Shown here piece after piece: positions 20,606 to 33,602 of a stretch of DNA of 54,719 nt; position 1 is the first letter of the stretch; the number at the start of each line of letters is the position of its first letter. Where the stretch lies: the NCBI GenBank assembly GCA_045114235.1, contig JBGUKB010000047.1, positions 1 through 54,719 of the forward strand. Direction: 5' to 3'. The notes beneath the pieces are model-generated. The model saw only the letters and a program-made list of their open reading frames with translations, was not told the origin of the DNA and did no database searches. Origin of the DNA: Victivallales bacterium. Its GTDB lineage: Bacteria; Verrucomicrobiota; Lentisphaeria; Victivallales; UBA1829. Made by a program: the position numbers and the translations under genes.

Positions 20606-20845
20606 ATTGCAAAGCAATCTCTTTACTATACCCCACATTTCGGGAAAAATCAAGCACGGAACCTTTTTTTTGCGGAAAAAACTTACGTGCGAGGCAGACA
20701 TACCGGGTCGTAAAACAGCCCCGATATTTTGCGGTTCTTTTCCATGCGGCGCGGCTTTTGCGGTTTCCCGCTTGCATTTTTCGAAACCTATGATATGTTT
20801 TCCGTGATACGTATTTCATCGGTTTTCACGGAAGGAGCTTCCTCT

Positions 20846-22306
20846 ATGTCCGCATCGCAGACCCTCGCATCGACCATTGCCGGCTCGTGGTATCCGGGCG
20901 ATTCCGCCAGTCTCAACGCCATGATCGATTCGTTCCTGGCGCCGTGCCCCGTGCCGGAAAAGCCGTGCAATGTGATCGTGGTGCCGCACGCCGGGTATTT
21001 GTATTCCGGGCCGACGGCGGGTTATGCCTATGCCGCGGTCGACCGCAGGAAAGTCCGGCGCGTGATCCTCCTTGCCCCGAGCCACCGCTACGGCATCCGC
21101 GACCTCGCGGTCATGCCGATGGCCGACGCCGTCTCCACGCCGCTCGGGACGATCCCGCTGGACACCGCCATGCGCGGCGCCCTGCTCGGAAACGCGATGT
21201 TCCGCGCGGACGACAGCGTACACAAGCTCGAACACAGTACGCAGATCCAGTATCCGTTCCTTCAGCACTGCCTTGATGATTTCAAACTTCTTCCGTTTGT
21301 TGTCGGCAACCTGAGCATGCACGCCGCCGACGCCCTCGCCGCCGCGCTGAAGCCGTTCCTCGCGGACGATGTGCTGCTGGTCGTCAGTTCGGATTTCATC
21401 CATTACGGCAGCGACTTCGACTATGAACCCTTCCCGCAGGACACCGAGGCGAAGACGCGCGCGCTCAACCTCGACGCGGCGGACGCGATCGCCCGCCGCG
21501 ACACGGCGCGCTTCGAGCGCATCTTGGACGAATCCGGCGCGACCATCTGCGGGCGCGAACCCATCCGCGCCGCGTTGCGGATGCTCCCCGATGGCTGCAC
21601 CGGCTCCGTGCTCCACTATGCCACCAGTTCGGACGAATCCCGCGACTTCTCCCGGTTCGTCTGCTACTGCTCCATCGGATTCCATGCGGAATTCCCGCCC
21701 GCCCCGGAACAGACGGAAGCCGAGACGGATGCGGATTCCGGCGGTCTCTCCGCCGCCGACAGGAGTTTCCTGCTCGACCTCGCACGCCGCGCCATCCAGT
21801 ACGCCCTGAACACGCGCATGGTCCCCATGGCGGACGCGCTCGGCGTGAACCCGGACGTGCTGTCCCCCGCGCTCCGCAAGAACATGGGCGCGTTCGTGAC
21901 GCTCTCGATGAAACAGAACCACCGTCTGCGCGGCTGCATCGGCGAAATCCAGCCCTTCCGCCCGCTTTGGAAAGCCGTTCTCGGCCGCGCCGTCGACGCC
22001 GCCTTCCGCGATCCGAGGTTTCTCCCGCTGACCGCGCAGGAATTCGCGGACGTCGCGATCGAGATCTCCGCCCTCACGCCCGCCGTCCCGGTCGGAAGCT
22101 GGCGCGACATCGTGATCGGCCGCCACGGCATGACCCTGACCAAAAACGGACGGTCCGCGGTCTTCCTGCCGCAGGTCGCGCCGGAACAGGGCTGGGGCAT
22201 CGAAGAGACACTGTCCAACCTCGCGATGAAGGCGGGTCTCCCGCCGGACGCCTGGCGCGAAGGCGCGTCGTTCACCGTGTTCGAAGCTATCGTCTTCCAT
22301 GAATAA
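20846..22306 (+). CDS. AmmeMemoRadiSam protein B (MEMO-like) fused to protein A (AMMECR1 domain)
   Basis: AGSWYP, PHAGYLYSG, PSH, EHS, SSDFIHYG, TICG, then GAFVTL, LRGCIG, DPRF, FLPQV, KAGL. GAAGGAG RBS before ATG 20846. Confidence 0.93.
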   Translation: MSASQTLASTIAGSWYPGDSASLNAMIDSFLAPCPVPEKPCNVIVVPHAGYLYSGPTAGYAYAAVDRRKVRRVILLAPSHRYGIRDLAVMPMADAVSTPLGTIPLDTAMRGALLGNAMFRADDSVHKLEHSTQIQYPFLQHCLDDFKLLPFVVGNLSMHAADALAAALKPFLADDVLLVVSSDFIHYGSDFDYEPFPQDTEAKTRALNLDAADAIARRDTARFERILDESGATICGREPIRAALRMLPDGCTGSVLHYATSSDESRDFSRFVCYCSIGFHAEFPPAPEQTEAETDADSGGLSAADRSFLLDLARRAIQYALNTRMVPMADALGVNPDVLSPALRKNMGAFVTLSMKQNHRLRGCIGEIQPFRPLWKAVLGRAVDAAFRDPRFLPLTAQEFADVAIEISALTPAVPVGSWRDIVIGRHGMTLTKNGRSAVFLPQVAPEQGWGIEETLSNLAMKAGLPPDAWREGASFTVFEAIVFHE

Positions 22307-22349
22307 GTCGCTGTTCCGCATGTGCCCTTCGACAAAAAGGTATTCCTTC

Positions 22350-23108
22350 ATGAGCCCCTTCTTTCTTTTTCTTTCTGTCACGTTCTTTCTCTTTGCCGGC
22401 GCCGGTTATGCCTTTGCGGATGAGTCGGCCGACGAAAACACACTCAGAGAGATCACATATGCCTTTGGCAACCCCGATCCCGCCAAAGGTGAGGATGCCT
22501 TTATCCGATATTTCCATCAAACTGACGAAAAAAATGTTCTGACCATAACGCTATCCAAATACAGCAGCATTGCCGAAACGGAACGGGTATGGAAATCTTT
22601 TTCAACCGACTATAAGAACAGCGGCACGAATGCATCATTCGGCGGTTCTTCCGTTTCTGCCGATGAACAGGCAGCCCAAGCTGCTTCAGAATCACGTTTT
22701 GCGGATGCTGAAACAGGGGGGGCGAACGCAAATCGTACTGACGATGAACTCATGGTCTATAAAATTGATGTTCCCTTCGATAAAAGCGCTGTCGACAAAG
22801 CCGGTATCGCAGGATATGATGACAGAGATACCCTGTTCGTTTTTCCTGAGGTCAAAACAGAGACATCCGAAAGTGTTCAATTGTCGGATGGAGGAACTTA
22901 CTCGATCCTTGTCTTCGAAAAAAAGGCATTTGCCAACAGTCAGAACAGATCAATCATATTATTCGGCGGCTCATATGCCAAGTCTGCCGAAGAGGAAGAT
23001 TATTCCACTTCTCCTTATGCGATTCCGCTTGCGATTCTTTTCCTGGCGATTGGGTGCGGGATCGTTCTGGCGATGTTCACTACGACAGGAGCAAAGATGG
23101 ATGACTGA
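22350..23108 (+). CDS. Exported protein with C-terminal TM anchor; divergent paralogue of 26337-27050
   Basis: Signal peptide (...AGYAFA-DE), shared blocks with the 26337 protein (NVLTITL, VPFD, SILVF) and C-terminal PYAIPLAILFLAIGCGIVLAM. Start is 22350 or 22299. Confidence 0.8.
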   Translation: MSPFFLFLSVTFFLFAGAGYAFADESADENTLREITYAFGNPDPAKGEDAFIRYFHQTDEKNVLTITLSKYSSIAETERVWKSFSTDYKNSGTNASFGGSSVSADEQAAQAASESRFADAETGGANANRTDDELMVYKIDVPFDKSAVDKAGIAGYDDRDTLFVFPEVKTETSESVQLSDGGTYSILVFEKKAFANSQNRSIILFGGSYAKSAEEEDYSTSPYAIPLAILFLAIGCGIVLAMFTTTGAKMDD

Positions 23109-23197
23109 TGTCTCCGATCCGAACAGGAAATGATGCAACGGATCTTCTCCCGAAACAGTCCCGGATTGAAATCCAACGAAGGTAGAAAAAACTGATT

Positions 23198-25492
23198 ATG
23201 AACAGAAAAAAAACCATCTCACTGGCCTTATTCGGACTTGTCCTTGTCGCAGGTCTGCTGGTGTGCGGATATTTCGGCATGAAGATCGTCCGCCGCACCC
23301 GTCTGCGCCGCGCAGCGATGACGGCATACGAGAACAAGGAATACGCGTTGGCGGAACCCCTTTTGCTTCGGCAAGTTCAAAATGACCCGGATGACGAGGC
23401 GGGATTCGTGGCGCTGGCAAACATCTATCACGACTTCGGCAACGTGGGAATGGAAGCGCAGATGTGGCAGACGGCCACGACACTGGACACGCAGAATCCG
23501 GAATATCGTGAAAAAATGCTGGACTGTATGGTGAAATCCGCAAGCTACGCCCTTATGCACGGTGTTCTGGGGCGGAAAGCCCGGGCGGATGAAAAGTTCA
23601 CGGACCAGGAGTTATATTGGTATGTGATCTCTTCCTACCGTTCCGGCTATCCGAAGGACGGAGAAGATGCCTACAACAAGTATGTAAAAAAGCATCCCGA
23701 CGTGTTTCACAAGAACGATTTGGGGCGGATGGCGGAATTCATAGCAGTCTATGAGACGTTGTCCGACAGCGAACGTGATTCTTTCCTGATCGATGCCATG
23801 CAGTCGGAGGATCCGGAGATACGATTCGAGGCGATTTATACCGATTTGCGCCGCCTGGAACAACGCGACGGCGACGATCCCGGGAACGACGAGAAATTCG
23901 AGAGCATGCTGAAGCTGGCTGTGGAAGCGAATTATTTCGCGGGGACGGCGCTTCTGGCGGATTTTTATTTCTCAAGATGCCGGTTCGATGAAGTGATCGG
24001 TGTTTTAAGTCCGTATTTGGAGACCATTGATGATATGGACCTTTATCTGCTGTATGCGGAAAGCTTCGCTTTTACGGGTAAGCTCAACGAAATCAGGGAA
24101 CTGGAAAAGAAACTGCGTCCGAAACCCGGTTTTCTGCCGTATATGGCGGACTATTGCGAAATCCTGATCGCATACCTTGAAAATGACGAGGATAAGCTTG
24201 CCGCGGTCTTCCGTAAACATGGCAAACGCATCGATTCCGCGCTTTCGCGCTTTATCCGGTTGCGCGTGGCGATGGCGAACCAAGCGCCCGGCGAGATCCT
24301 GTCCGTGGCAGAAGACGTATTCTCTCATCCGCCATTTCACGATCTGCATGACCGCGCACTGCTTATCTTCCTGGATTATGTTTCCGCTGAAATGAAGAAG
24401 GAGGAAAATCAGAAGGACCCGTCTCGGATGGCCGCGCTGGCAAAAGTGCTGTCCGACTATCTGCACGGGAACAGGCTCCTCACAGAAATCATCCTCATGG
24501 ACCAGTATCGAAGAAGTGTGGCGGCGGAACCCGACCTGCTCGCGGCTTTGGAGCAGTTTCCCGACGATGCGCAATTCCAGCGGATCACCGCGGAATATTT
24601 GGTCTTCCATGAGAAAGCGGAACAGGCGCTGCCGGTCCTCGAAGAAATACTGGATGCGGAAAAGAACGCGGACCGGAAGCCTGAACGCGGGGTTCAAATC
24701 CTTCTCATGCTGGCGCTGGATCAGCTCGGGCGGCATGACGAAGCGGCCGAGGCCTTCCGGGAACTGGTGGTGCAGTCCGGATTCGACCCGGAGCTTCTGG
24801 AGCAGTATTTCCTGTTCTGTGTGCACAATGGCCGGTCGGCGGATCTGGGATCCATGGCCGACCGTCTCGGCAGCCTGGAGGACGAAACCCGGAAACGTTT
24901 CGGTGTTTTTTTCCGTGCGGCGGCGCTGCTGCAGACGGAAGACGAAGGGAAGAAAAACGAGGCGCTTGATCTGCTCGCCTCGGCTCCGTCCGATGACCCG
25001 GAATATACGTTCTATGCGGCGAACAGCCTGTACAAACACGGCCGGATCGATGATGCCGAAACGAAATACGGGGCGATCCTGAAGACCTATCGCATTCCGT
25101 CCCTGCCTTATGTCAATCTTTCCAACATCTACCACGCGAAAGGAGAAAAAGAAAAAGCACTGGAAGCCGCGGAAGCGGCGTTCGATCTTGAAAAGGAATC
25201 CATGCTTCCGGCGTTTGTCTACGCAAAAAGGCTGGCCGAAGCAGAGCGTTTTGAGGAAGCCGTAACCGTTCTTGATTTCCCGCGCCATGCCGTAAACTAC
25301 CGCAAAGACATCGTGGACCTTTGGCGCGAATGTATGCACCATGCCATTGAAAAAAGCATTGCAGGACGGAAGCTGCTTCAGGCGGAGGAACAATGCAAGC
25401 ATCTTCTGATCGTCGTGCCGGACGATGGTTTCGGAAAAGAATACCTGGAAAAAGTCCGGAAAATGCTCTTCCCGAAGCAGGGCGAGGTATAA
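23198..25492 (+). CDS. Membrane-anchored TPR-repeat protein (copy 1)
   Basis: N-terminal TM helix, RRTRLRR, helical repeats (AGFVALANIYHDFG; YVNLSNIYHAKGEKEKALEAAEAAF). Colinear paralogue of 27331-29646. Confidence 0.88.
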   Translation: MNRKKTISLALFGLVLVAGLLVCGYFGMKIVRRTRLRRAAMTAYENKEYALAEPLLLRQVQNDPDDEAGFVALANIYHDFGNVGMEAQMWQTATTLDTQNPEYREKMLDCMVKSASYALMHGVLGRKARADEKFTDQELYWYVISSYRSGYPKDGEDAYNKYVKKHPDVFHKNDLGRMAEFIAVYETLSDSERDSFLIDAMQSEDPEIRFEAIYTDLRRLEQRDGDDPGNDEKFESMLKLAVEANYFAGTALLADFYFSRCRFDEVIGVLSPYLETIDDMDLYLLYAESFAFTGKLNEIRELEKKLRPKPGFLPYMADYCEILIAYLENDEDKLAAVFRKHGKRIDSALSRFIRLRVAMANQAPGEILSVAEDVFSHPPFHDLHDRALLIFLDYVSAEMKKEENQKDPSRMAALAKVLSDYLHGNRLLTEIILMDQYRRSVAAEPDLLAALEQFPDDAQFQRITAEYLVFHEKAEQALPVLEEILDAEKNADRKPERGVQILLMLALDQLGRHDEAAEAFRELVVQSGFDPELLEQYFLFCVHNGRSADLGSMADRLGSLEDETRKRFGVFFRAAALLQTEDEGKKNEALDLLASAPSDDPEYTFYAANSLYKHGRIDDAETKYGAILKTYRIPSLPYVNLSNIYHAKGEKEKALEAAEAAFDLEKESMLPAFVYAKRLAEAERFEEAVTVLDFPRHAVNYRKDIVDLWRECMHHAIEKSIAGRKLLQAEEQCKHLLIVVPDDGFGKEYLEKVRKMLFPKQGEV

Positions 25493-25599
25493 AACAGCCC
25501 CCTTTCCGGTCTTGTTCCCCCCTCCCTGTTCAGATTTAATTAGCATCTAACGAAATATTATTGTTTTTCAGAAAAATCTAAAAAAAACATAACTTTAAT

Positions 25600-25628
25600 T
25601 TGAAATAAAGCAATTGACGGTATATATT
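25600..25628 (+). promoter_or_regulatory. Sigma70-type promoter in an AT-rich spacer
   Basis: TTGAAA-17-TATATT upstream of the 25668 gene. Confidence 0.5.
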
Positions 25629-25667
25629 TTTCTCCAAATTCTTTAGTAAAATAAGAGTAACGGCTTC

Positions 25668-26141
25668 ATGAAACGGCTTCTGACATTTCTGGTGATGGTC
25701 CTGCTGGCGGCGGGCTTCTCGTTCGAGACGCTTGCTGTGGATGCGTTCGATGTGTCCGCAGCGGGCGAGTATGCTGTGTCCGCGGATGCGGATGTTGCCG
25801 AGGCGGAAGCCGCCGTGTCGGATGAAATCGCCGCTCCGATCTTCCTCTTCACCCGTTCCATCAAGTCCGCCGCTTCGGAATTCCTGCATCAGGAACTCGG
25901 CATCGGCAACGTTCACGGTCAGCCGCTCCCCGGCGTCCTGATCACCCTTCTCCTCGGTGCGGCGTTCGGACTCGCCCGGAAAATCCGAAACGGCCGCCGC
26001 AACGCTCATTCCGAACAAACGGCGGAGGACGTGCTCCTGCTCACGGCGCGTCTCCTCCGCATGCAGATTTCGTATTTGTATCCGCCTGAAACGATTCACA
26101 CCATCTCCCCTGGACCGGATTTATTCTGTCAGAGGGAATGA
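25668..26141 (+). CDS. Small exported protein with GQPLP-TM-basic motif and an extra cytoplasmic tail
   Basis: Signal peptide, acidic Ala-rich stretch, GQPLPGVLITLLLGAAFGLARKIRNGRR. Confidence 0.75.
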   Translation: MKRLLTFLVMVLLAAGFSFETLAVDAFDVSAAGEYAVSADADVAEAEAAVSDEIAAPIFLFTRSIKSAASEFLHQELGIGNVHGQPLPGVLITLLLGAAFGLARKIRNGRRNAHSEQTAEDVLLLTARLLRMQISYLYPPETIHTISPGPDLFCQRE

Positions 26142-26336
26142 GGCGGGATTCCCGGCACGCCGAACGTATTGCGTTGCCGGTGACCTGCGGACGCGGCCCA
26201 CGGGGTGCCGCGGACCGGATTCCTTTTTGATTTGAATGCCCCGAAACCGCTTCCGGATTCTCACAACAAATCTAGAACAAGGACCGGAAGTCCCGGTGAA
26301 AAACGCCGGAACAAACACAAAGAAAGACCTCTTACC

Positions 26337-27050
26337 ATGAAACTTCACAATCTCCTTCTCTCCGCCGCCCTCTTCCTCACCATTGGCGCCGCTTCCGCTC
26401 TTGCGGTCGAGCCGGAAGACGAACAGGCGCTCGCGCAAACCACTTATACGATGTCTACTACGTCCACCGGTGGATATTATTATGCCACCTCCGGGAACAA
26501 CACCCTGACCGTCACCCTGCTCCAGTATGCCGGCACGGCCGATACGACCAGCGGCTGGACCTATTATGCAGTCGGGTATAATGCGGACGGCACCACCAAG
26601 ACATTCGAGCAGTCTCTGACCCTTGACAATTCAAACATCACCGGAAGAGAGCTCACGGAGGCCGAAATTGCGTCTATCCCCCAATATCGCAACTCTGATG
26701 ACCTTCATGCCTATGTGTTCACCGTGCCGTTTGACGCCGAAACCACGGAAATGATCGGCTTTGCGGGACGCAACGGCGATGGCAAAAAGCTTGTTTTTTC
26801 CCCTGTCAATGATCAGGCAACAAACGGCTTTTATTTCTCCGACAAAAAAACCAACTCCATCCTTTTCTTCGGGGATAATCAGTTTAAAAACGGTCAGATC
26901 AAGGCTCAGATCATGTCCGGCGCCGCTTTCGTTGAGAAAGGCGGCCCCATGGGTGCTCCGCTTCCGGCTCCGGTCGTGACGCTCCTCATCGCGCTCGGCT
27001 TCGGCGCCGCGTTCGTGATGTACCGCAACCGCAAGCAGGCAAAGGCCTGA
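26337..27050 (+). CDS. Surface protein with PEP-CTERM-like C-terminal sorting signal (GAPLPAP-TM-RNRK)
   Basis: Signal peptide MKLHNLLLSAALFLTIGAASALA, Thr/Ser/Gly/Tyr-rich body, ends GAPLPAPVVTLLIALGFGAAFVMYRNRKQAKA. Confidence 0.85.
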   Translation: MKLHNLLLSAALFLTIGAASALAVEPEDEQALAQTTYTMSTTSTGGYYYATSGNNTLTVTLLQYAGTADTTSGWTYYAVGYNADGTTKTFEQSLTLDNSNITGRELTEAEIASIPQYRNSDDLHAYVFTVPFDAETTEMIGFAGRNGDGKKLVFSPVNDQATNGFYFSDKKTNSILFFGDNQFKNGQIKAQIMSGAAFVEKGGPMGAPLPAPVVTLLIALGFGAAFVMYRNRKQAKA

Positions 27051-27330
27051 TTTCGGAAACCGTCTCGGGGAGGTCTTCACCGGCCTTCCCCGAAACGGAT
27101 GTGTTTGAAAGATCATGATGCCGGATTCTCCGGAAGGAGGAAAAGGCTTCGAAAGCAGACGGTCCATCCCGCTTTCCCCGGATGGACTGCCTGCTGATTT
27201 TTAATCCGATGTTTTTTTTTTGAACTCGGAACAAAGACGGGGAAGGCAGATGACAGATGGCAGATTCGCGTGCATCCGGCATGCGGATTTCGGAATAAAA
27301 CGGAACAACGGAAGGAAAGACGTAACAACC

Positions 27331-29646
27331 ATGAACCGGAGAATCATTGCGCTGATCGTGCTGGGGTTCGTGCTTATTGCCTGTCTGCTGGCATGCGGAT
27401 ATTTCGGGATGAAGACGGTCCGGCGCACCCGGCTGCGCCGCGCGGCGATGACCGCGTACGAAAAAAAGGAATATGTGTTGGCAGAACGTCTTTTGAACGC
27501 CTATACCCGGCAGGATCCGAACGCCGAAGCGGAATTCGTGGCGCTGGCAAACATTTATCATGAATTCGGCAACACGGGGATGGAGGCACAGATGTGGCAG
27601 ACGGCAAGTTCCCTGAACCCGCTGAACAAAGAATATTACGAAAACATGCTGAACAGCGCGGTGCGTGCCGCGAGCTATACGCTCCTGCACAGCATCCTGG
27701 GACGGAAGGTCAGAGGAAACGAAGAACTGACCGACCAGGAACTGTACCTTTTCGTGATCTCTTCCTATCGCGCCGGCTATCAGAAAGACGGGGACGACGC
27801 CTACCAGAAAGCCGTAAAGGCCGATCCGGAAGCGTTCCACAAGAACGAACTGGGACTGATGGCGGAATTCATGGCAAATTTTCCGAACCTGTCCGAGGGG
27901 GAACGCGACGCTTTCCTGGATCAGGCAATGAAATCGGAAGATCCCGTGATCCAATTCGAAGCGCTTTACATCGCCATCCGCCGCCTGGAACAAGACAACG
28001 GGGATGATGCCGAATATGAAGCAATGCTGAAACAACTCGTGGAAATCAACTATTTCGCCGGAACTCCGCTTCTGGCTGATTACTATTTTTCGATATACCG
28101 GTTCGAAGACATGTTGAACACGGCAGAACCATACCTGAAGACCATCGACGACCTCAATCTTTACTTGACATATGCGGAGTCCTGCGTCTTCGAAGGAAAA
28201 CTGGACGAACTCAAGGCCCTGGAAAAGAAACTGCGACGGAAAACCGGTCCCCTGCCGGTCCTGGCAGACTATACGGAGATCCTGATCGCATTTTTGGAGA
28301 ATAACGAGGAAAAACTCGCCGCCACCGTCCGGAAATCCGGCAAACTTATCGATTCCCCGCTCGCCCGCTTCATACGTCTGCGCGTAGCCCTGGCGAATAA
28401 ATCGTCTAACGAGATTCGGACTGTAGCACAGGAAATCTTCTCCGCGGCGCCGTTCCACGATATTCATACCCGCGCCCTGTTCGTCTGTATGAATTATATC
28501 TCGGAAGAAATGAAAAAGCCGGAAAACCAGAAGGATCCGTCGCAGATGGCCGACCTGGCGAAAATTTTGACCGGGTATCTGCAGGGCGACCCGATGCTCA
28601 CGGAAATTATCCTCGTGGACCAGTATAAAAAAGGTCTGGTGAAGGAAGATGATCTGATGGCCGCTCTGGACCAGTTCCCGAACGACATCCTGCTTCAGCG
28701 GATCACGGCGGAATACCTGATCCTCAACGGGAAAGCGGAACGGGCGCTTGACATCGTCGAACGAATTCTGGCGGCAATGGAAGAGGCAAAACAGGAACCC
28801 GACCGCGGAATCCTGATCCTGCAGATGCTGGCACTGGACCAGATCGGACGATACGATGAGGCAAAGGTCATTTTCCAGGAACTGCTGGAACAGTCCGAGT
28901 TCGATTTGGAACTGCTGGCTCAGTATTTCAAATTCTGCGAAAAGAACAAACGGACGGCGGATCTGACGGCCATGGCGGACATGCTGGACACCGCAAAGGA
29001 CGGCAAACTTGAGCATTACGGAAAGTTCTTCCGCGCCGCTGCCCTGCTCTCAGCAGAGGACGAATCCGGAAAAAAAGAGGCTTTGGAACTGCTGGTTTCG
29101 ACCCCGACCGGCGACCCGGAGTTCACGTTCTACGCAGCGAACTGCCTGTGCAAATATGATTGGTTCGACGAGGCGGAGGCAAAATATAAGGCAATCCTGA
29201 AGACCTACCGCTCACCTTCTCTGCTTTATATCAATCTTTCCATCATCTATCATGCCAAAGGCGATGAACAGAAGGCACTGGAAATGGCGAAGGAGGCGTT
29301 CGATCTCGAAAAGAATTCCATGCTCCCCGCGTTCATCTACGCACAGCGGCTGTCCGAGGCAAAGCGCTACGAGGAAGCAGTGGACGTCCTCAAGTTCCCG
29401 CGTCACGCCGTGAACTACCGCGAGGATATCGTCGCGCTTTGGATCGACTGCATGAAGCACGTCATCGAAAAGGACATAGCCGACGGGAAATACCTTCAGG
29501 CGGAAGAACAGTGCAAGCATCTGCTGGTCATCGCGCCCGACGACGAATTCGGCAAAGAGAACATGGAAAAGGTCCGGGAGATCCTCAAGCCGAAGAAGGA
29601 CGAGGCGAAGAACGCGGAGGCGGAAGCCGCCGATCCCGCCGCCTGA
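27331..29646 (+). CDS. Membrane-anchored TPR-repeat protein (copy 2)
   Basis: MNRRIIALIVLG... start; many segments identical to 23198-25492 (CGYFGMK, MEAQMWQTA, FPRHAVNYR, QAEEQCKHLL). Confidence 0.88.
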   Translation: MNRRIIALIVLGFVLIACLLACGYFGMKTVRRTRLRRAAMTAYEKKEYVLAERLLNAYTRQDPNAEAEFVALANIYHEFGNTGMEAQMWQTASSLNPLNKEYYENMLNSAVRAASYTLLHSILGRKVRGNEELTDQELYLFVISSYRAGYQKDGDDAYQKAVKADPEAFHKNELGLMAEFMANFPNLSEGERDAFLDQAMKSEDPVIQFEALYIAIRRLEQDNGDDAEYEAMLKQLVEINYFAGTPLLADYYFSIYRFEDMLNTAEPYLKTIDDLNLYLTYAESCVFEGKLDELKALEKKLRRKTGPLPVLADYTEILIAFLENNEEKLAATVRKSGKLIDSPLARFIRLRVALANKSSNEIRTVAQEIFSAAPFHDIHTRALFVCMNYISEEMKKPENQKDPSQMADLAKILTGYLQGDPMLTEIILVDQYKKGLVKEDDLMAALDQFPNDILLQRITAEYLILNGKAERALDIVERILAAMEEAKQEPDRGILILQMLALDQIGRYDEAKVIFQELLEQSEFDLELLAQYFKFCEKNKRTADLTAMADMLDTAKDGKLEHYGKFFRAAALLSAEDESGKKEALELLVSTPTGDPEFTFYAANCLCKYDWFDEAEAKYKAILKTYRSPSLLYINLSIIYHAKGDEQKALEMAKEAFDLEKNSMLPAFIYAQRLSEAKRYEEAVDVLKFPRHAVNYREDIVALWIDCMKHVIEKDIADGKYLQAEEQCKHLLVIAPDDEFGKENMEKVREILKPKKDEAKNAEAEAADPAA

Positions 29647-29714
29647 CGCTCGTTTCGACACGAAACAAACCTCGTCCCGGCCTCCTCAAAATAAAGGAAT
29701 CATGGTCGGGACGC

Positions 29715-29758
29715 TTGCTTTTTTTCCTTTTTCATGTATATTATTAGTTTTCAACTAA
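29715..29758 (+). promoter_or_regulatory. Promoter and candidate metalloregulator operator of the znu operon
   Basis: TTGCTT-16-TATATT followed immediately by the inverted repeat TTAGTT-ttc-AACTAA. Confidence 0.5.
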
Positions 29759-29796
29759 CTCAGGCTCCCCCCCCCCAAAAAAAAAGGAGTTAAACC

Positions 29797-30870
29797 ATGA
29801 AATATTTCACAATCGCATTTCTGCTGGCGCTCATCGCGCTGTGCGCCGTACTCTTTGTACTGCCCGGCAAGATCACGTCGGCAGTTCACAATGCGTCCTC
29901 GGAAGGCTACGGCGTCGCCGCGACCACGTATCCGATCTGGGTGCTGACCCGGGAAGTCGTAGACGGAACCGGGATCGAGGTCGAGCTGCTGACCCCGCCG
30001 GACGCCGGCTGCCCCCACGACTACGTCCTGACCGCAAACGACCTCATGAAGGTCTCCGCCGCCCGCAAGCCGCTCCTGCTGTTCAAGAACGGCGCGGGAC
30101 TCGACGAGCACATCTGCAAAGCTGCGTTGTCCGCAGGCAAGGGCATCGTGGTGATCGACACTGGCGCGGGGATTGACGTGATCGGCGGCGACGAAGACGA
30201 CGACCACGACCATGAGACCGGACACGAGCACGACGGAGAAGACGACGATCATGACGAGCACGAGGACCATGACGCCGACCACGAGCATGAACATGAACAC
30301 GAGGCAGACCACGACCACGAGGCGGAAGGCCATCATCACCATCATCATGGCGGCGAGAACGGACATTTCTTCGCCAGTCCGTACGAGGCGAGGAAGATCG
30401 TCGCGACCATCGCCGACGAACTCGAGAAAAGCGACATTCTCCACGCAAACAAGTTCCGCGAGAACGCCGCAAAACTCGACAAACGACTCCAGATCCTCGG
30501 CGACGAATTCAAAGCGCAGCTCGCGCCGTACGCGGACAAACACGTCGCCGCCCAGCACAACGTCTTCGACTACCTCCTGCGCGACTGCGGATTCGAGACG
30601 CCGCTCGCGATTTTCGCCGATCCCGAAACGCCCCCCTCGCCCGCCGAGATCACGGCCATGACGAAGGAATTCAAGGAACACGGCGTGAAAGTCATCTTCA
30701 CCGAGCCGCAGTACCCGGACGAACTCGCCAAGCTCATCGGCAAGGAGACCGGCGCGACCGTCGTGAAGATCGACCCGGTGGCGTCCGGCCCCGCCGAACC
30801 GCCCGCCGGATATTATTTCGACGTGATGCACAACAATCTCGAAATCATGAAGAAAGCACTTGCGGAATGA
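29797..30870 (+). CDS. znuA: Zn/Mn ABC transporter substrate-binding protein with long His/Asp/Glu loop
   Basis: ATTYPI, GCPHDY, NGAGLD, His-rich loop, NGHFF.SP, HNVFDY, IFTEPQ. Confidence 0.88.
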   Translation: MKYFTIAFLLALIALCAVLFVLPGKITSAVHNASSEGYGVAATTYPIWVLTREVVDGTGIEVELLTPPDAGCPHDYVLTANDLMKVSAARKPLLLFKNGAGLDEHICKAALSAGKGIVVIDTGAGIDVIGGDEDDDHDHETGHEHDGEDDDHDEHEDHDADHEHEHEHEADHDHEAEGHHHHHHGGENGHFFASPYEARKIVATIADELEKSDILHANKFRENAAKLDKRLQILGDEFKAQLAPYADKHVAAQHNVFDYLLRDCGFETPLAIFADPETPPSPAEITAMTKEFKEHGVKVIFTEPQYPDELAKLIGKETGATVVKIDPVASGPAEPPAGYYFDVMHNNLEIMKKALAE

Positions 30871-31784
30871 CCTCGCCAGTGGAAACAGCACCTGCATCTA
30901 CCGACGCGGTCCGGTTCGAGCATGTCGGCCTGACCCTCGGCGAAAACCGCATCCTGGACGATGTGTGCGCGCATGTCCCGCGCGGCAAGTTCACGGCCAT
31001 CGTCGGCCCGAACGGCGCGGGCAAGACCACGCTCACGCTCGCGATCCTCGGCCAGATCAAACATACCGGCAGGGTGCTGTTCCCCGGACTGGATGAAGCC
31101 GGACGGCGTCCGCGGTTCGGATTCGTGCCGCAGCGGCTCGTGTTCGACCGCGACATCCCGATGACGGTCATGGACTATCTGCTCTCCGGGCTCCAGCGCA
31201 TGCCGCTTTTCCTGGGGCACTCCAAACGTCACGTGGAACGCATCATGCGCTATCTGGACGAGGTCGAATGCACCGCTCTCGCCGACCATGCGTTCGGCGC
31301 GCTCTCCGGCGGCGAGATCCAGCGCGTCCTGCTCGCGCAGGCGCTGCTGCAGGAGCCCGACATCCTGATCCTGGACGAACCGACGTCCGGGGTCGATTTC
31401 AAGGGCGGACAGATCTGCTGCGAACTCCTGCGGCGCGTCCGCGAAAAACGCGGCTTCACGCAGATCATGATCAGCCACGACCTCGCGACCGTGACCGCGC
31501 ACGCCGACCATGTGATCTGCCTGAACCACAAAGTCTTCGGCGAGGGCGAACCGCGCGTGGCGCTGACCCATCAGGTGCTGTCCGAGACGTTCGGCCTGCA
31601 CCTCGGTCTCCCCGACCTGCACGGCATCCCGCAGGACGTGCGCGAATGCCCCGAGAACTGTCCGCTGCGCAACGAACACCTGCACCTGCACGATCACTGC
31701 CATATCGACGGCGCGGCGCACGGATGTTCCTGCGGCCACGATCATAATCACGACCACGGAACGGAGGCCGGCCATGCTGAATGA
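30867..31784 (+). CDS. znuC: Metal ABC transporter ATP-binding protein with His/Cys-rich tail
   Basis: GPNGAGKTT, VPQ, LSGGEIQR, ILDEPT, SHDL. Confidence 0.9.
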   Translation: MTSPVETAPASTDAVRFEHVGLTLGENRILDDVCAHVPRGKFTAIVGPNGAGKTTLTLAILGQIKHTGRVLFPGLDEAGRRPRFGFVPQRLVFDRDIPMTVMDYLLSGLQRMPLFLGHSKRHVERIMRYLDEVECTALADHAFGALSGGEIQRVLLAQALLQEPDILILDEPTSGVDFKGGQICCELLRRVREKRGFTQIMISHDLATVTAHADHVICLNHKVFGEGEPRVALTHQVLSETFGLHLGLPDLHGIPQDVRECPENCPLRNEHLHLHDHCHIDGAAHGCSCGHDHNHDHGTEAGHAE

Positions 31785-32768: not shown

Positions 32769-33602
32769 ATGCTGAACACCCTGCGCTATGTCCTGGATTT
32801 CCGGTTGCTGCCGACGATCGCGTTTGCCAACCGGTCCCTGCTGTGGCAGTTCGTGAAACGCAGCGTGTCGGCCCGGTACCGCGGTTCGATGCTGGGGCTG
32901 TTCTGGAGTTTCGCGCAGCCTCTGATGATGCTGTGCGTGTATACGTTCGTCTTCAGCGTGGTGTTCAAGGCGCGCTGGGGCGTGGAAACGGATGGCGGCG
33001 GGCGCGGCGCGTTCGCGATCATCATGTTCTGCGGCCTTGCCCTGTTCAACATCTTCTCCGAGGCGGTGAACCTGAACTGCGGGATCGTGGTCGCGAATAC
33101 AAATCTGGTCAAGAAAGTGATCTTTCCGCTGGAGATCCTGCCGCTGTCGCAGACGATCGCGTCGTTCGCGGTCGGCATGGTCTGGTTCTTCCTGCTGTTC
33201 CTCGGCGCGTTGTTCGTCTTCGGCAAGCTGAGCTTCACGATGCTGCTTCTGCCGCTGATCCTGCTTCCGCTGTTCCTGTTCACGCTGGGCGTCTCGTACT
33301 TCACGGCCTCGCTCGGGGTCTATGTGCGCGATACGCCTTACGTGGTGGGCGTGGCGCTCCAGGTTCTGTTTTTCATGACGCCGATCTTCTACCCGGTTTC
33401 GGCGATCCCGGAACGTTTCCGCTGGCCGATCATGCTGAATCCGCTGACGCTCCTGATCGAGGAGGCGCGGAAGGTGTTCCTGTACGGCGAACTGCCGGAC
33501 TGGCGGTTCCTCGGCGCGGCGTTCCTGATCTCGCTGCTGACGCTTCATCTCGGGTTCCTGTGGTTCCACAAGACGAAGAAAGGGTTCGCCGATGTCCTCT
33601 GA
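32769..33602 (+). CDS. wzm: Polysaccharide ABC exporter permease
   Basis: ARYRGS.LG..WS..QPL, LVKKVIFP, VRD, TPIFYP, LNPL, KKGFADVL. Confidence 0.92.
   Translation: MLNTLRYVLDFRLLPTIAFANRSLLWQFVKRSVSARYRGSMLGLFWSFAQPLMMLCVYTFVFSVVFKARWGVETDGGGRGAFAIIMFCGLALFNIFSEAVNLNCGIVVANTNLVKKVIFPLEILPLSQTIASFAVGMVWFFLLFLGALFVFGKLSFTMLLLPLILLPLFLFTLGVSYFTASLGVYVRDTPYVVGVALQVLFFMTPIFYPVSAIPERFRWPIMLNPLTLLIEEARKVFLYGELPDWRFLGAAFLISLLTLHLGFLWFHKTKKGFADVL

Follow-up and report, generated by a model that had tools for sequence, protein, structure and literature searches.

A candidate exosortase system with a GxPLP C-terminal signal and cargo-linked TPR proteins in Victivallales

What is the function of two tandem gene cassettes in which a small secreted protein ending in a membrane anchor is followed by a large tetratricopeptide repeat (TPR) protein? 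The cassettes lie in a 54,719-nucleotide stretch of DNA from a rumen Victivallales bacterium, referred to here as the window, which is contig C47 of a 2.66-Mb genome (161 contigs, 90.8% complete). Exosortase systems are widespread, and their biochemistry is poorly known. A sequence-only reading had taken the C-terminal tails of the small proteins as signals of a lineage-specific "GxPLP-CTERM" sorting system with dedicated TPR partners, and had noted that no exosortase is visible in the window. None was found there in the present analysis either; the only copy in the genome maps to contig C30, and this missing enzyme lends support to the proposal. The refuting conditions set out in the sequence-only reading were all checked, and none of them held. 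With a probability of roughly 80%, the cassettes encode the cargo of an exosortase subtype not described before, together with accessory proteins linked to that cargo; the subtype is present mainly in the order Victivallales. On the best reading, it combines the GxPLP-CTERM signal with an EpsI-like partner and with a TPR protein that is anchored in the membrane and linked to the cargo. The observations on which this reading rests are gene content, motif conservation, co-occurrence, gene order and the retention of catalytic residues.

The GxPLP tail and its candidate cargoes

Five open reading frames (ORFs) on the same strand encode, in order, protein A, TPR-1, the mini protein, protein B and TPR-2 (Table 1), as had been described. 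The duplication of the cassette is real. A and B share 29% identity (E 2e-24); for TPR-1 and TPR-2 the figure is 63%, over 761 residues. The three small proteins appear to carry N-terminal signal peptides, featuring a basic start, a hydrophobic run and the sites AFA/D, TLA/V and ALA/V; these calls, which agree with those made before, were made by eye.

The tail of protein B consists of GAPLPAP, a hydrophobic helix and YRNRK. Two further cassettes map elsewhere in the genome. The cargo encoded on contig C95 (368 residues) features GGPLPGG and RRRK, and that encoded on contig C135 (215 residues) GEPLPAP and RNRK; genes for TPR proteins of 765 and 862 residues, respectively, are located directly 3', bringing the genome total to four cargo-TPR cassettes. 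Both cargoes were found by pattern scans and by a motif-blind scan for a C-terminal helix with a basic end. Wide P.P regular-expression scans were swamped by spurious ORFs in this GC-rich genome, and a hydropathy rule and a hidden Markov model (HMM) were used instead. The HMM was built from 37 tails, and matches with E of 1e-6 or better were considered strong. In the 2.66-Mb genome it has four matches, all within cassettes, with E-values ranging from 9e-18 (B) to 3.6e-14. Three of them are encoded directly upstream of three of the four TPR-family genes of the genome; the fourth is the mini protein (1.1e-16), encoded between TPR-1 and B. The succession of motif, transmembrane helix and basic cluster at the C-terminus is found in B, in the C95 and C135 cargoes and in the 37 aligned tails, in which G-x-P-L-P abuts the helix.

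The tails quoted in the sequence-only reading are all present, and two of its statements need correction. In the mini protein, GQPLPG, helix and basic cluster span residues 84-111 and are followed by about 46 residues. Protein A had been assigned a degenerate version of the signal; its hydrophobic anchor lacks both GxPLP and a basic cluster and is missed by the HMM. Similar tails occur on proteins preceding a TPR gene in three loci of related genomes (L006, L009 and L015), and the A tail forms a conserved, degenerate type of its own, the status of which is uncertain.

Approximately 15 database proteins resemble B exclusively over its 33-residue tail, with 82-91% identity, and among the contigs of an RNA library 11 align with B only from position 26958 onward, which corresponds to the tail-coding end. 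These matches indicate that the tail acts as a module; the 11 contigs fit a shared module and are no proof of transcription. No NCBIfam sorting-domain model accepts the tails of the window, whether whole proteins or tails alone are scanned. The best scores, all below cut-off, were obtained with Loki-CTERM (18.2 vs 19.9), PID-CTERM (14.2 vs 26) and LPXTG (13.4 vs 15.9), so that the tails do not score as ordinary members of an existing model. The mature parts of the cargoes contain 8.8% Ser, 8.9% Thr, 6.5% Asn and 0% Cys, measured against a crude background set; similarly Ser/Thr/Asn-rich and Cys-poor values are given for PEP-CTERM proteins in the passages of Haft 2006 (PMC1569441) drawn on here.

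Protein B is predicted to adopt a beta-sandwich fold (predicted local distance difference test, pLDDT, 80), and a Foldseek search of the model against PDB returned no match at E 0.001 or better. A likeness to the lectin PA-IIL (VIA-align Z 6.4, root-mean-square deviation 3.3, 103 residues) falls within the common range of the tool, and the fold family was left unnamed. An FtsW/RodA-like ORF in L013 that matches the G.PLP pattern was excluded from the tail alignment.

Other anchored proteins and neighbours were seen in the genome. A 467-residue ORF (C89:1618-3021, L005), missed by the tail HMM, features IPALP, a hydrophobic run and RRWRKRR followed by 9 residues. Three paralogous small ORFs (C4:8398-8862, C87:7160-7531 and C101:2762-3196) have another C-terminal helix with a basic end, and their tails begin with a conserved REIATVGGAMTAL stretch; they may constitute another anchored family. 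The C135 cassette is preceded by an ECF sigma factor gene (Sigma70_r2/r4) and a 298-residue ORF of no known family (L003 3450-5008), and a 482-residue Sel1-repeat protein is encoded 3' of the C95 cassette (L002 2868-4316).

The exosortase, its locus and its distribution

The protein encoded on C30 is recognised by the exosortase models PF09721 (97.7-97.8 bits vs a cut-off of 25.7) and TIGR04178 (44.7 bits vs 23). An alignment of the clade revealed the stretches AITDACSG, with C189, and N-x-x-R, with R234, together with H255 (numbering of the window genome), and the three residues are invariant in 15/15 aligned exosortases. Cys, Arg and His are the conserved residues of the exosortase family and are held to be catalytic in the passages of Haft 2006 (PMC1569441) and of bioRxiv 10.1101/2023.06.07.544157 considered here. 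None of the four exosortases tested reaches the cut-off of a named Xrt subtype. Scores range from 53.6 to 65.1 for XrtV (cut-off 313), from 43 to 60 for XrtA (208) and from 48 to 58 for XrtD (400); the best named subtype of the C30 enzyme is XrtV, at 53.6.

In the C30 locus, genes for two GT4 glycosyltransferases and a WecG/TagA transferase precede the exosortase gene, which is followed by a gene for a 386-residue membrane protein. A gene for such an EpsI-like protein adjoins the exosortase gene in every locus seen. The protein scores below the EpsI family model (TIGR02914, 14.9 vs 42.8) and has no Pfam match; PF11984, which is EpsI-related, occurs in 51-69% of the members of the nearest Atlas clusters, which is a lead only.

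The genome offers no other evident sorting route. Genome-wide, no protein passes the PEP-CTERM model TIGR02595 (best 13.8 vs 16, on a different protein) or the VPLPA-CTERM model TIGR03370 (best 12.8 vs 25.35, not on the tails). A family search found no sortase, and the rhomboid present is a generic one (42.4 vs 84), as in all 14 control genomes, and not a rhombosortase. Thus, the GxPLP proteins are the only visible candidate cargoes of the only exosortase.

The same 151 genomes of the order were searched for the exosortase, the TPR family (E 1e-30 or better) and the tails. An exosortase homologue is present in 52 genomes, the TPR family in 35 and strong tails in 47, with 1-7 tail matches per genome; the motif therefore recurs at C-termini well beyond the four copies of the window genome. 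Tails and exosortase are both present in 45 genomes and both absent from 97; tails alone were found in 2 and the exosortase alone in 7. Nearly all genomes carrying the TPR family (34/35) have an exosortase, and in the exception, G133, which also counts among those with tails alone, the TPR gene is the last before the end of the contig (L057). Within many genera the distribution is patchy, and exosortase, TPR family and tails track each other. For instance, all three are absent from G073 and G103, two genomes of the genus of the window (94% and 92% complete). Among 301 genomes sampled across the phylum, 30/83 of those in the order have strong tails vs 5/218 outside it, and one locus (L068) in another family of the phylum carries the same four-gene operon described below.

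The TPR genes are linked to tail genes in other genomes as well. A tail match lies within 800 bp upstream, on the same strand, of 49/61 TPR genes (29/32 in the genus of the window, 20/29 elsewhere). Ten loci were fetched from named genomes, which are rumen Lentisphaeria/Victivallales metagenome-assembled genomes, and in all ten the TPR gene follows a gene for a secreted protein with a C-terminal anchor. Six of these anchors are canonical GxPLP tails, one is a variant (GIPLS with YRNRK) and three are of the A type. The tandem order GxPLPGG cargo, TPR, mini, GxPLPAP cargo, TPR is found in four of the ten, and two loci (L013 and L015) are syntenic with the window, with the same neighbours and a single cassette. 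A further locus, from Promethearchaeota (L016), shares 28% identity over 168 residues; it was regarded as a generic TPR match and set aside.

Outside the genus of the window, the TPR gene is located directly upstream of the exosortase gene, as seen in the 20 such loci fetched, and thus sits between the cargo and exosortase genes. The common operon encodes one or two small secreted proteins, the TPR protein (720-790 residues), the exosortase (about 290 residues) and the EpsI-like protein (about 355 residues), and runs on into a polyprenyl glycosylphosphotransferase gene (model score 288 bits) and further exopolysaccharide (EPS) genes. At the C-terminus of the small secreted proteins, SGQPLPG is followed by about 16 hydrophobic residues and then by KKRKK. 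In 12/20 loci, the ORF immediately preceding the TPR gene was picked out as tail-coding by a motif-blind rule (hydrophobic helix with a basic end), and GQPLPG is present in every one of these ORFs. A G.PLP tail gene lies in the fetched stretch of 14/20 loci, and in a 15th such a gene is truncated by the contig end. In six of six further exosortase loci, from genomes below the 1e-30 TPR threshold, genes for a divergent TPR homologue and an EpsI-like protein flank the exosortase gene. Sequence comparison suggests that the ancestral order was cargo, TPR, exosortase and EpsI-like, and that the TPR gene was later multiplied and moved beside cargo genes in the genus of the window, where it is found in 2-5 copies per genome, unlinked from the exosortase gene.

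A proposed mechanism and its alternatives

According to the reading we favour, A, B, the mini protein and the C95 and C135 cargoes would be exported by Sec, and the short C-terminal helix would anchor each of them in the inner membrane so that the basic cluster faces the cytoplasm, placing the invariant G-x-P-L-P at the outer face of the helix. The C30 exosortase (Cys189/Arg234/His255) and the adjacent EpsI-like membrane protein, encoded within a glycosyltransferase locus, would recognise and cut the signal, and the cut protein would probably be handed to a surface or exopolysaccharide acceptor. The TPR protein may be a single-pass membrane scaffold of the same system, serving as adaptor, holdase or presenter for the cargo.

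TPR-1 and TPR-2 pass several Pfam TPR models (e.g., TPR_14, 49.8 bits vs 23.5). In the model of TPR-2 (pLDDT 90), a helix holding the membrane segment (residues 2-44) is followed by about 40 helices extending to residue 752. The family has more than 160 members among metagenome proteins, all without a name. The sequence LLAC-G occurs within the hydrophobic helix of many members, and several, such as P0003, P0104 and P0110, have no Cys there; as this Cys is not conserved, the N-terminus was not taken to be that of a lipoprotein. A complex prediction for mature B and TPR-2 scored 0.02 (mark 0.32), which weighs neither for nor against binding. A structural search with TPR-2 returned generic long TPR scaffolds alone (IFT-A, Ctr9 and Ski3), with TM-scores of 0.37 or less, and hence no functional clue.

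A different role for these proteins is the alternative that survives best. Exosortase sorting would be as proposed, and the TPR protein would be a regulator, or a scaffold for polysaccharide assembly or export, adjacent to cargo genes for the sake of co-expression only. In Proteobacteria, the TPR protein PrsT is tied to the regulatory set PrsK/PrsR and not to sorting itself, according to the portions of Haft 2006 (PMC1569441) cited here. The scaffold version also fits the continuation of the ancestral operon into EPS genes and the generic scaffolds returned by the fold search. However, a scaffold would be expected to remain with the EPS genes, and the exosortase, EpsI-like and glycosyltransferase genes have indeed stayed single on C30, while the TPR genes left that locus and multiplied with the cargo. 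The duplication of the TPR gene together with each cargo gene argues that the TPR protein acts on cargo rather than on polysaccharide synthesis, and the one-to-one spread favours cargo handling over polysaccharide assembly. A regulatory or polysaccharide-scaffold role is unlikely, though it deserves serious attention.

It is very unlikely that the tails are permanent, uncleaved anchors which hold cargo and TPR protein in a stable inner-membrane complex, and that they are connected with the exosortase only indirectly, by way of a common envelope or EPS programme. Such a complex would account for A and its relatives, which keep the anchor and the pairing with a TPR gene after losing motif and basic cluster, and for the conserved domain that follows the helix in the mini protein, an arrangement unusual for a discarded signal. 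It would not account for the exact retention of G-x-P-L-P at the edge of the helix across otherwise unrelated families, for tails that follow the exosortase across the 151 genomes, or for a cargo gene inside the exosortase operon. Finally, mere drift of PEP-CTERM or VPLPA-CTERM tails served by an ordinary exosortase is highly improbable: the three-part architecture is the same and the enzymes give weak partial scores to XrtV, XrtD and XrtA (43-65 bits), but the five tails match neither TIGR02595 nor TIGR03370 even at E up to 10, the four exosortases all fall below the named subtypes, the signature has no acidic residue, and NCBI names a close homologue generically as "exosortase/archaeosortase family protein".

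Several points weigh against the sorting system that we prefer. The tails of the alignment were collected with the pattern G.PLP, and the motif is invariant among them by construction. Its conservation is nevertheless credible beyond this selection, as evidenced by the motif-blind scan, by the proteins matching B over the tail only, and by the B homologues, 120/120 of which, among the matches listed, carry G.PLP in the last 45 residues. The genomes are related by descent, so that the contingency table overstates independence, and we claim no formal test. Of the 52 genomes with an exosortase homologue, 7 have no strong tail match. Conversely, G078 (92% complete) has GQPLPG tails and no exosortase was found in it; neither a TPR nor an exosortase gene lies in the 11 kb around one of its tail genes (L056, G078:C7:14000-25000). 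No tail match lies upstream of 12/61 TPR genes, TPR-1 among them, whose partner A is degenerate. The topology of the TPR protein is another such point. In paralogues with a short N-terminus, about 6 K/R residues follow the helix vs about 3 before it, which by the positive-inside rule predicts a cytoplasmic solenoid. Paralogues of the C135 type feature an N-terminal extension of about 100 residues, kept as an open frame in eight further genomes, which points to a periplasmic solenoid. The two signs disagree. Lastly, we infer, rather than observe, cleavage and the cut site, the acceptor, the contact between TPR protein and cargo, and the topology and role of the TPR protein.

The mini protein has features of its own. 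The protein, extension included, is kept in 7/7 related genomes, in which the last 14 residues are invariant. Of 28 sites per codon position in the tail, 3, 2 and 16 are variable at positions 1, 2 and 3, respectively; the extension has 46 sites per position, of which 16, 8 and 23 are variable. The concentration of variation at third positions indicates that the extension is coding and under selection. The signal, of the ancestral GQPLPG type, is located mid-protein, and a long conserved extension is unusual for a C-terminal sorting signal. We can imagine that the TPR proteins are cargo-specific sorting adaptors for one shared exosortase, and that cleavage of the mini protein releases the conserved domain into the cytoplasm as a reporter or regulator. 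This combined proposal is possible, albeit doubtful. If true, cargo-specific TPR adaptors would add a layer of specificity that is not known from any other exosortase system or from sortases.

The system works like PEP-CTERM/XrtA; by curated models it is neither PEP-CTERM nor VPLPA-CTERM, its TPR protein is not PrsT, and its enzyme is not a named Xrt. As in PEP-CTERM/XrtA, described in the cited parts of Haft 2006 (PMC1569441), the cargo would be exported by Sec, is Ser/Thr/Asn-rich and Cys-poor, and features a Pro motif, a helix and a basic cluster; a multi-pass Cys/Arg/His enzyme is encoded in an EPS locus, next to an EpsI-like protein and linked to a large TPR protein. In contrast, the motif is G-x-P-L-P (ancestrally S-G-Q-P-L-P-G) and not P-E-P, and the 1-7 tail matches per genome compare with a median of eight cargoes in that paper, as far as the cited parts go. 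The earlier analogy between the TPR proteins and PrsT stands as a functional resemblance and fails as a family assignment. Scores with the PrsT model TIGR02917 are 35.4, 35.0 and 24.3 bits vs a cut-off of 312 and cover approximately the last 110 residues only; unlike PrsT, the TPR proteins appear to be anchored by a helix rather than by a conserved lipobox, are encoded between cargo and exosortase, and in one genus are duplicated one-to-one with cargo. VPLPA-CTERM/XrtD (TIGR03370, TIGR04152) likewise has P-L-P in the signature and a dedicated exosortase subtype, but no tail of the genome passes TIGR03370, and the exosortase, besides its low XrtD score, is shorter (305 residues vs 486 in the model). 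A helix with a basic end is shared with Loki-CTERM, PID-CTERM and LPXTG, the weak best matches of the tails.

In the full-text literature, which leaves subscription journals and unpublished curated models outside the scope of the search, no description of a GxPLP signal or of an exosortase system of Lentisphaerae was found. We know of no established cut site, acceptor or role of the accessory proteins PrsT and EpsI for most exosortase subtypes. The system appears to be a compact variant, with four core genes, one to few cargoes and a sharply defined motif, and the copying of the TPR gene beside each cargo gene in one genus provides a natural experiment on the role of TPR proteins in exosortase sorting. 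Models for the tail, the exosortase clade and the TPR family would cover rumen and gut Victivallales proteins that are now annotated as hypothetical.

Layout of the window

The coordinates of the cassettes and of their neighbours are reported in Table 1. The wzm/wzt export locus that the sequence-only reading had placed nearby is borne out as regards its permease, with the ZnuA gene in between.

Table 1 Coordinates of the cassette genes and neighbouring features in the window
Feature	Position	Strand	Description
ORF upstream of cassettes	20729-22306		525 residues; also precedes the single cassette of L013 and of L015
Protein A	22350-23108	+	ORF, 252 residues; secreted, beta-rich and paralogous to B; C-terminal anchor of degenerate type (tail 23010-23105)
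TPR-1	23198-25492	+	ORF, 764 residues; one N-terminal membrane helix and all-helical TPR solenoid
Mini protein	25668-26141	+	ORF, 157 residues; signal peptide, acidic region of about 60 residues, signal at 25917-26000, extension of about 46 residues
Protein B	26337-27050	+	ORF, 237 residues; signal peptide, predicted beta-sandwich, tail 26952-27047; candidate exosortase cargo
TPR-2	27331-29646	+	ORF, 771 residues; membrane-anchored TPR solenoid, partner of B
ZnuA gene	within 29797-31784		Between cassettes and ABC-2 permease gene; passes PF01297
ABC-2 permease	32769-33602		Downstream of cassettes; passes PF01061

The G+C content is about 53% in the cassette region (22000-30000) and about 62% in the flanks. 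One metatranscriptome run contained only 7% of the sampled words. The contigs of this run cover 25/30 bins, mostly with 85-95% likeness, and derive largely from relatives; they are uninformative on transcription level or operon structure, and uncovered bins carry no meaning. In the segment downstream of TPR-2, the ZnuA homologue features a long insert rich in His/Asp/Glu, and the product of the ORF located 3' of the ZnuA gene has a His-rich C-terminal stretch.

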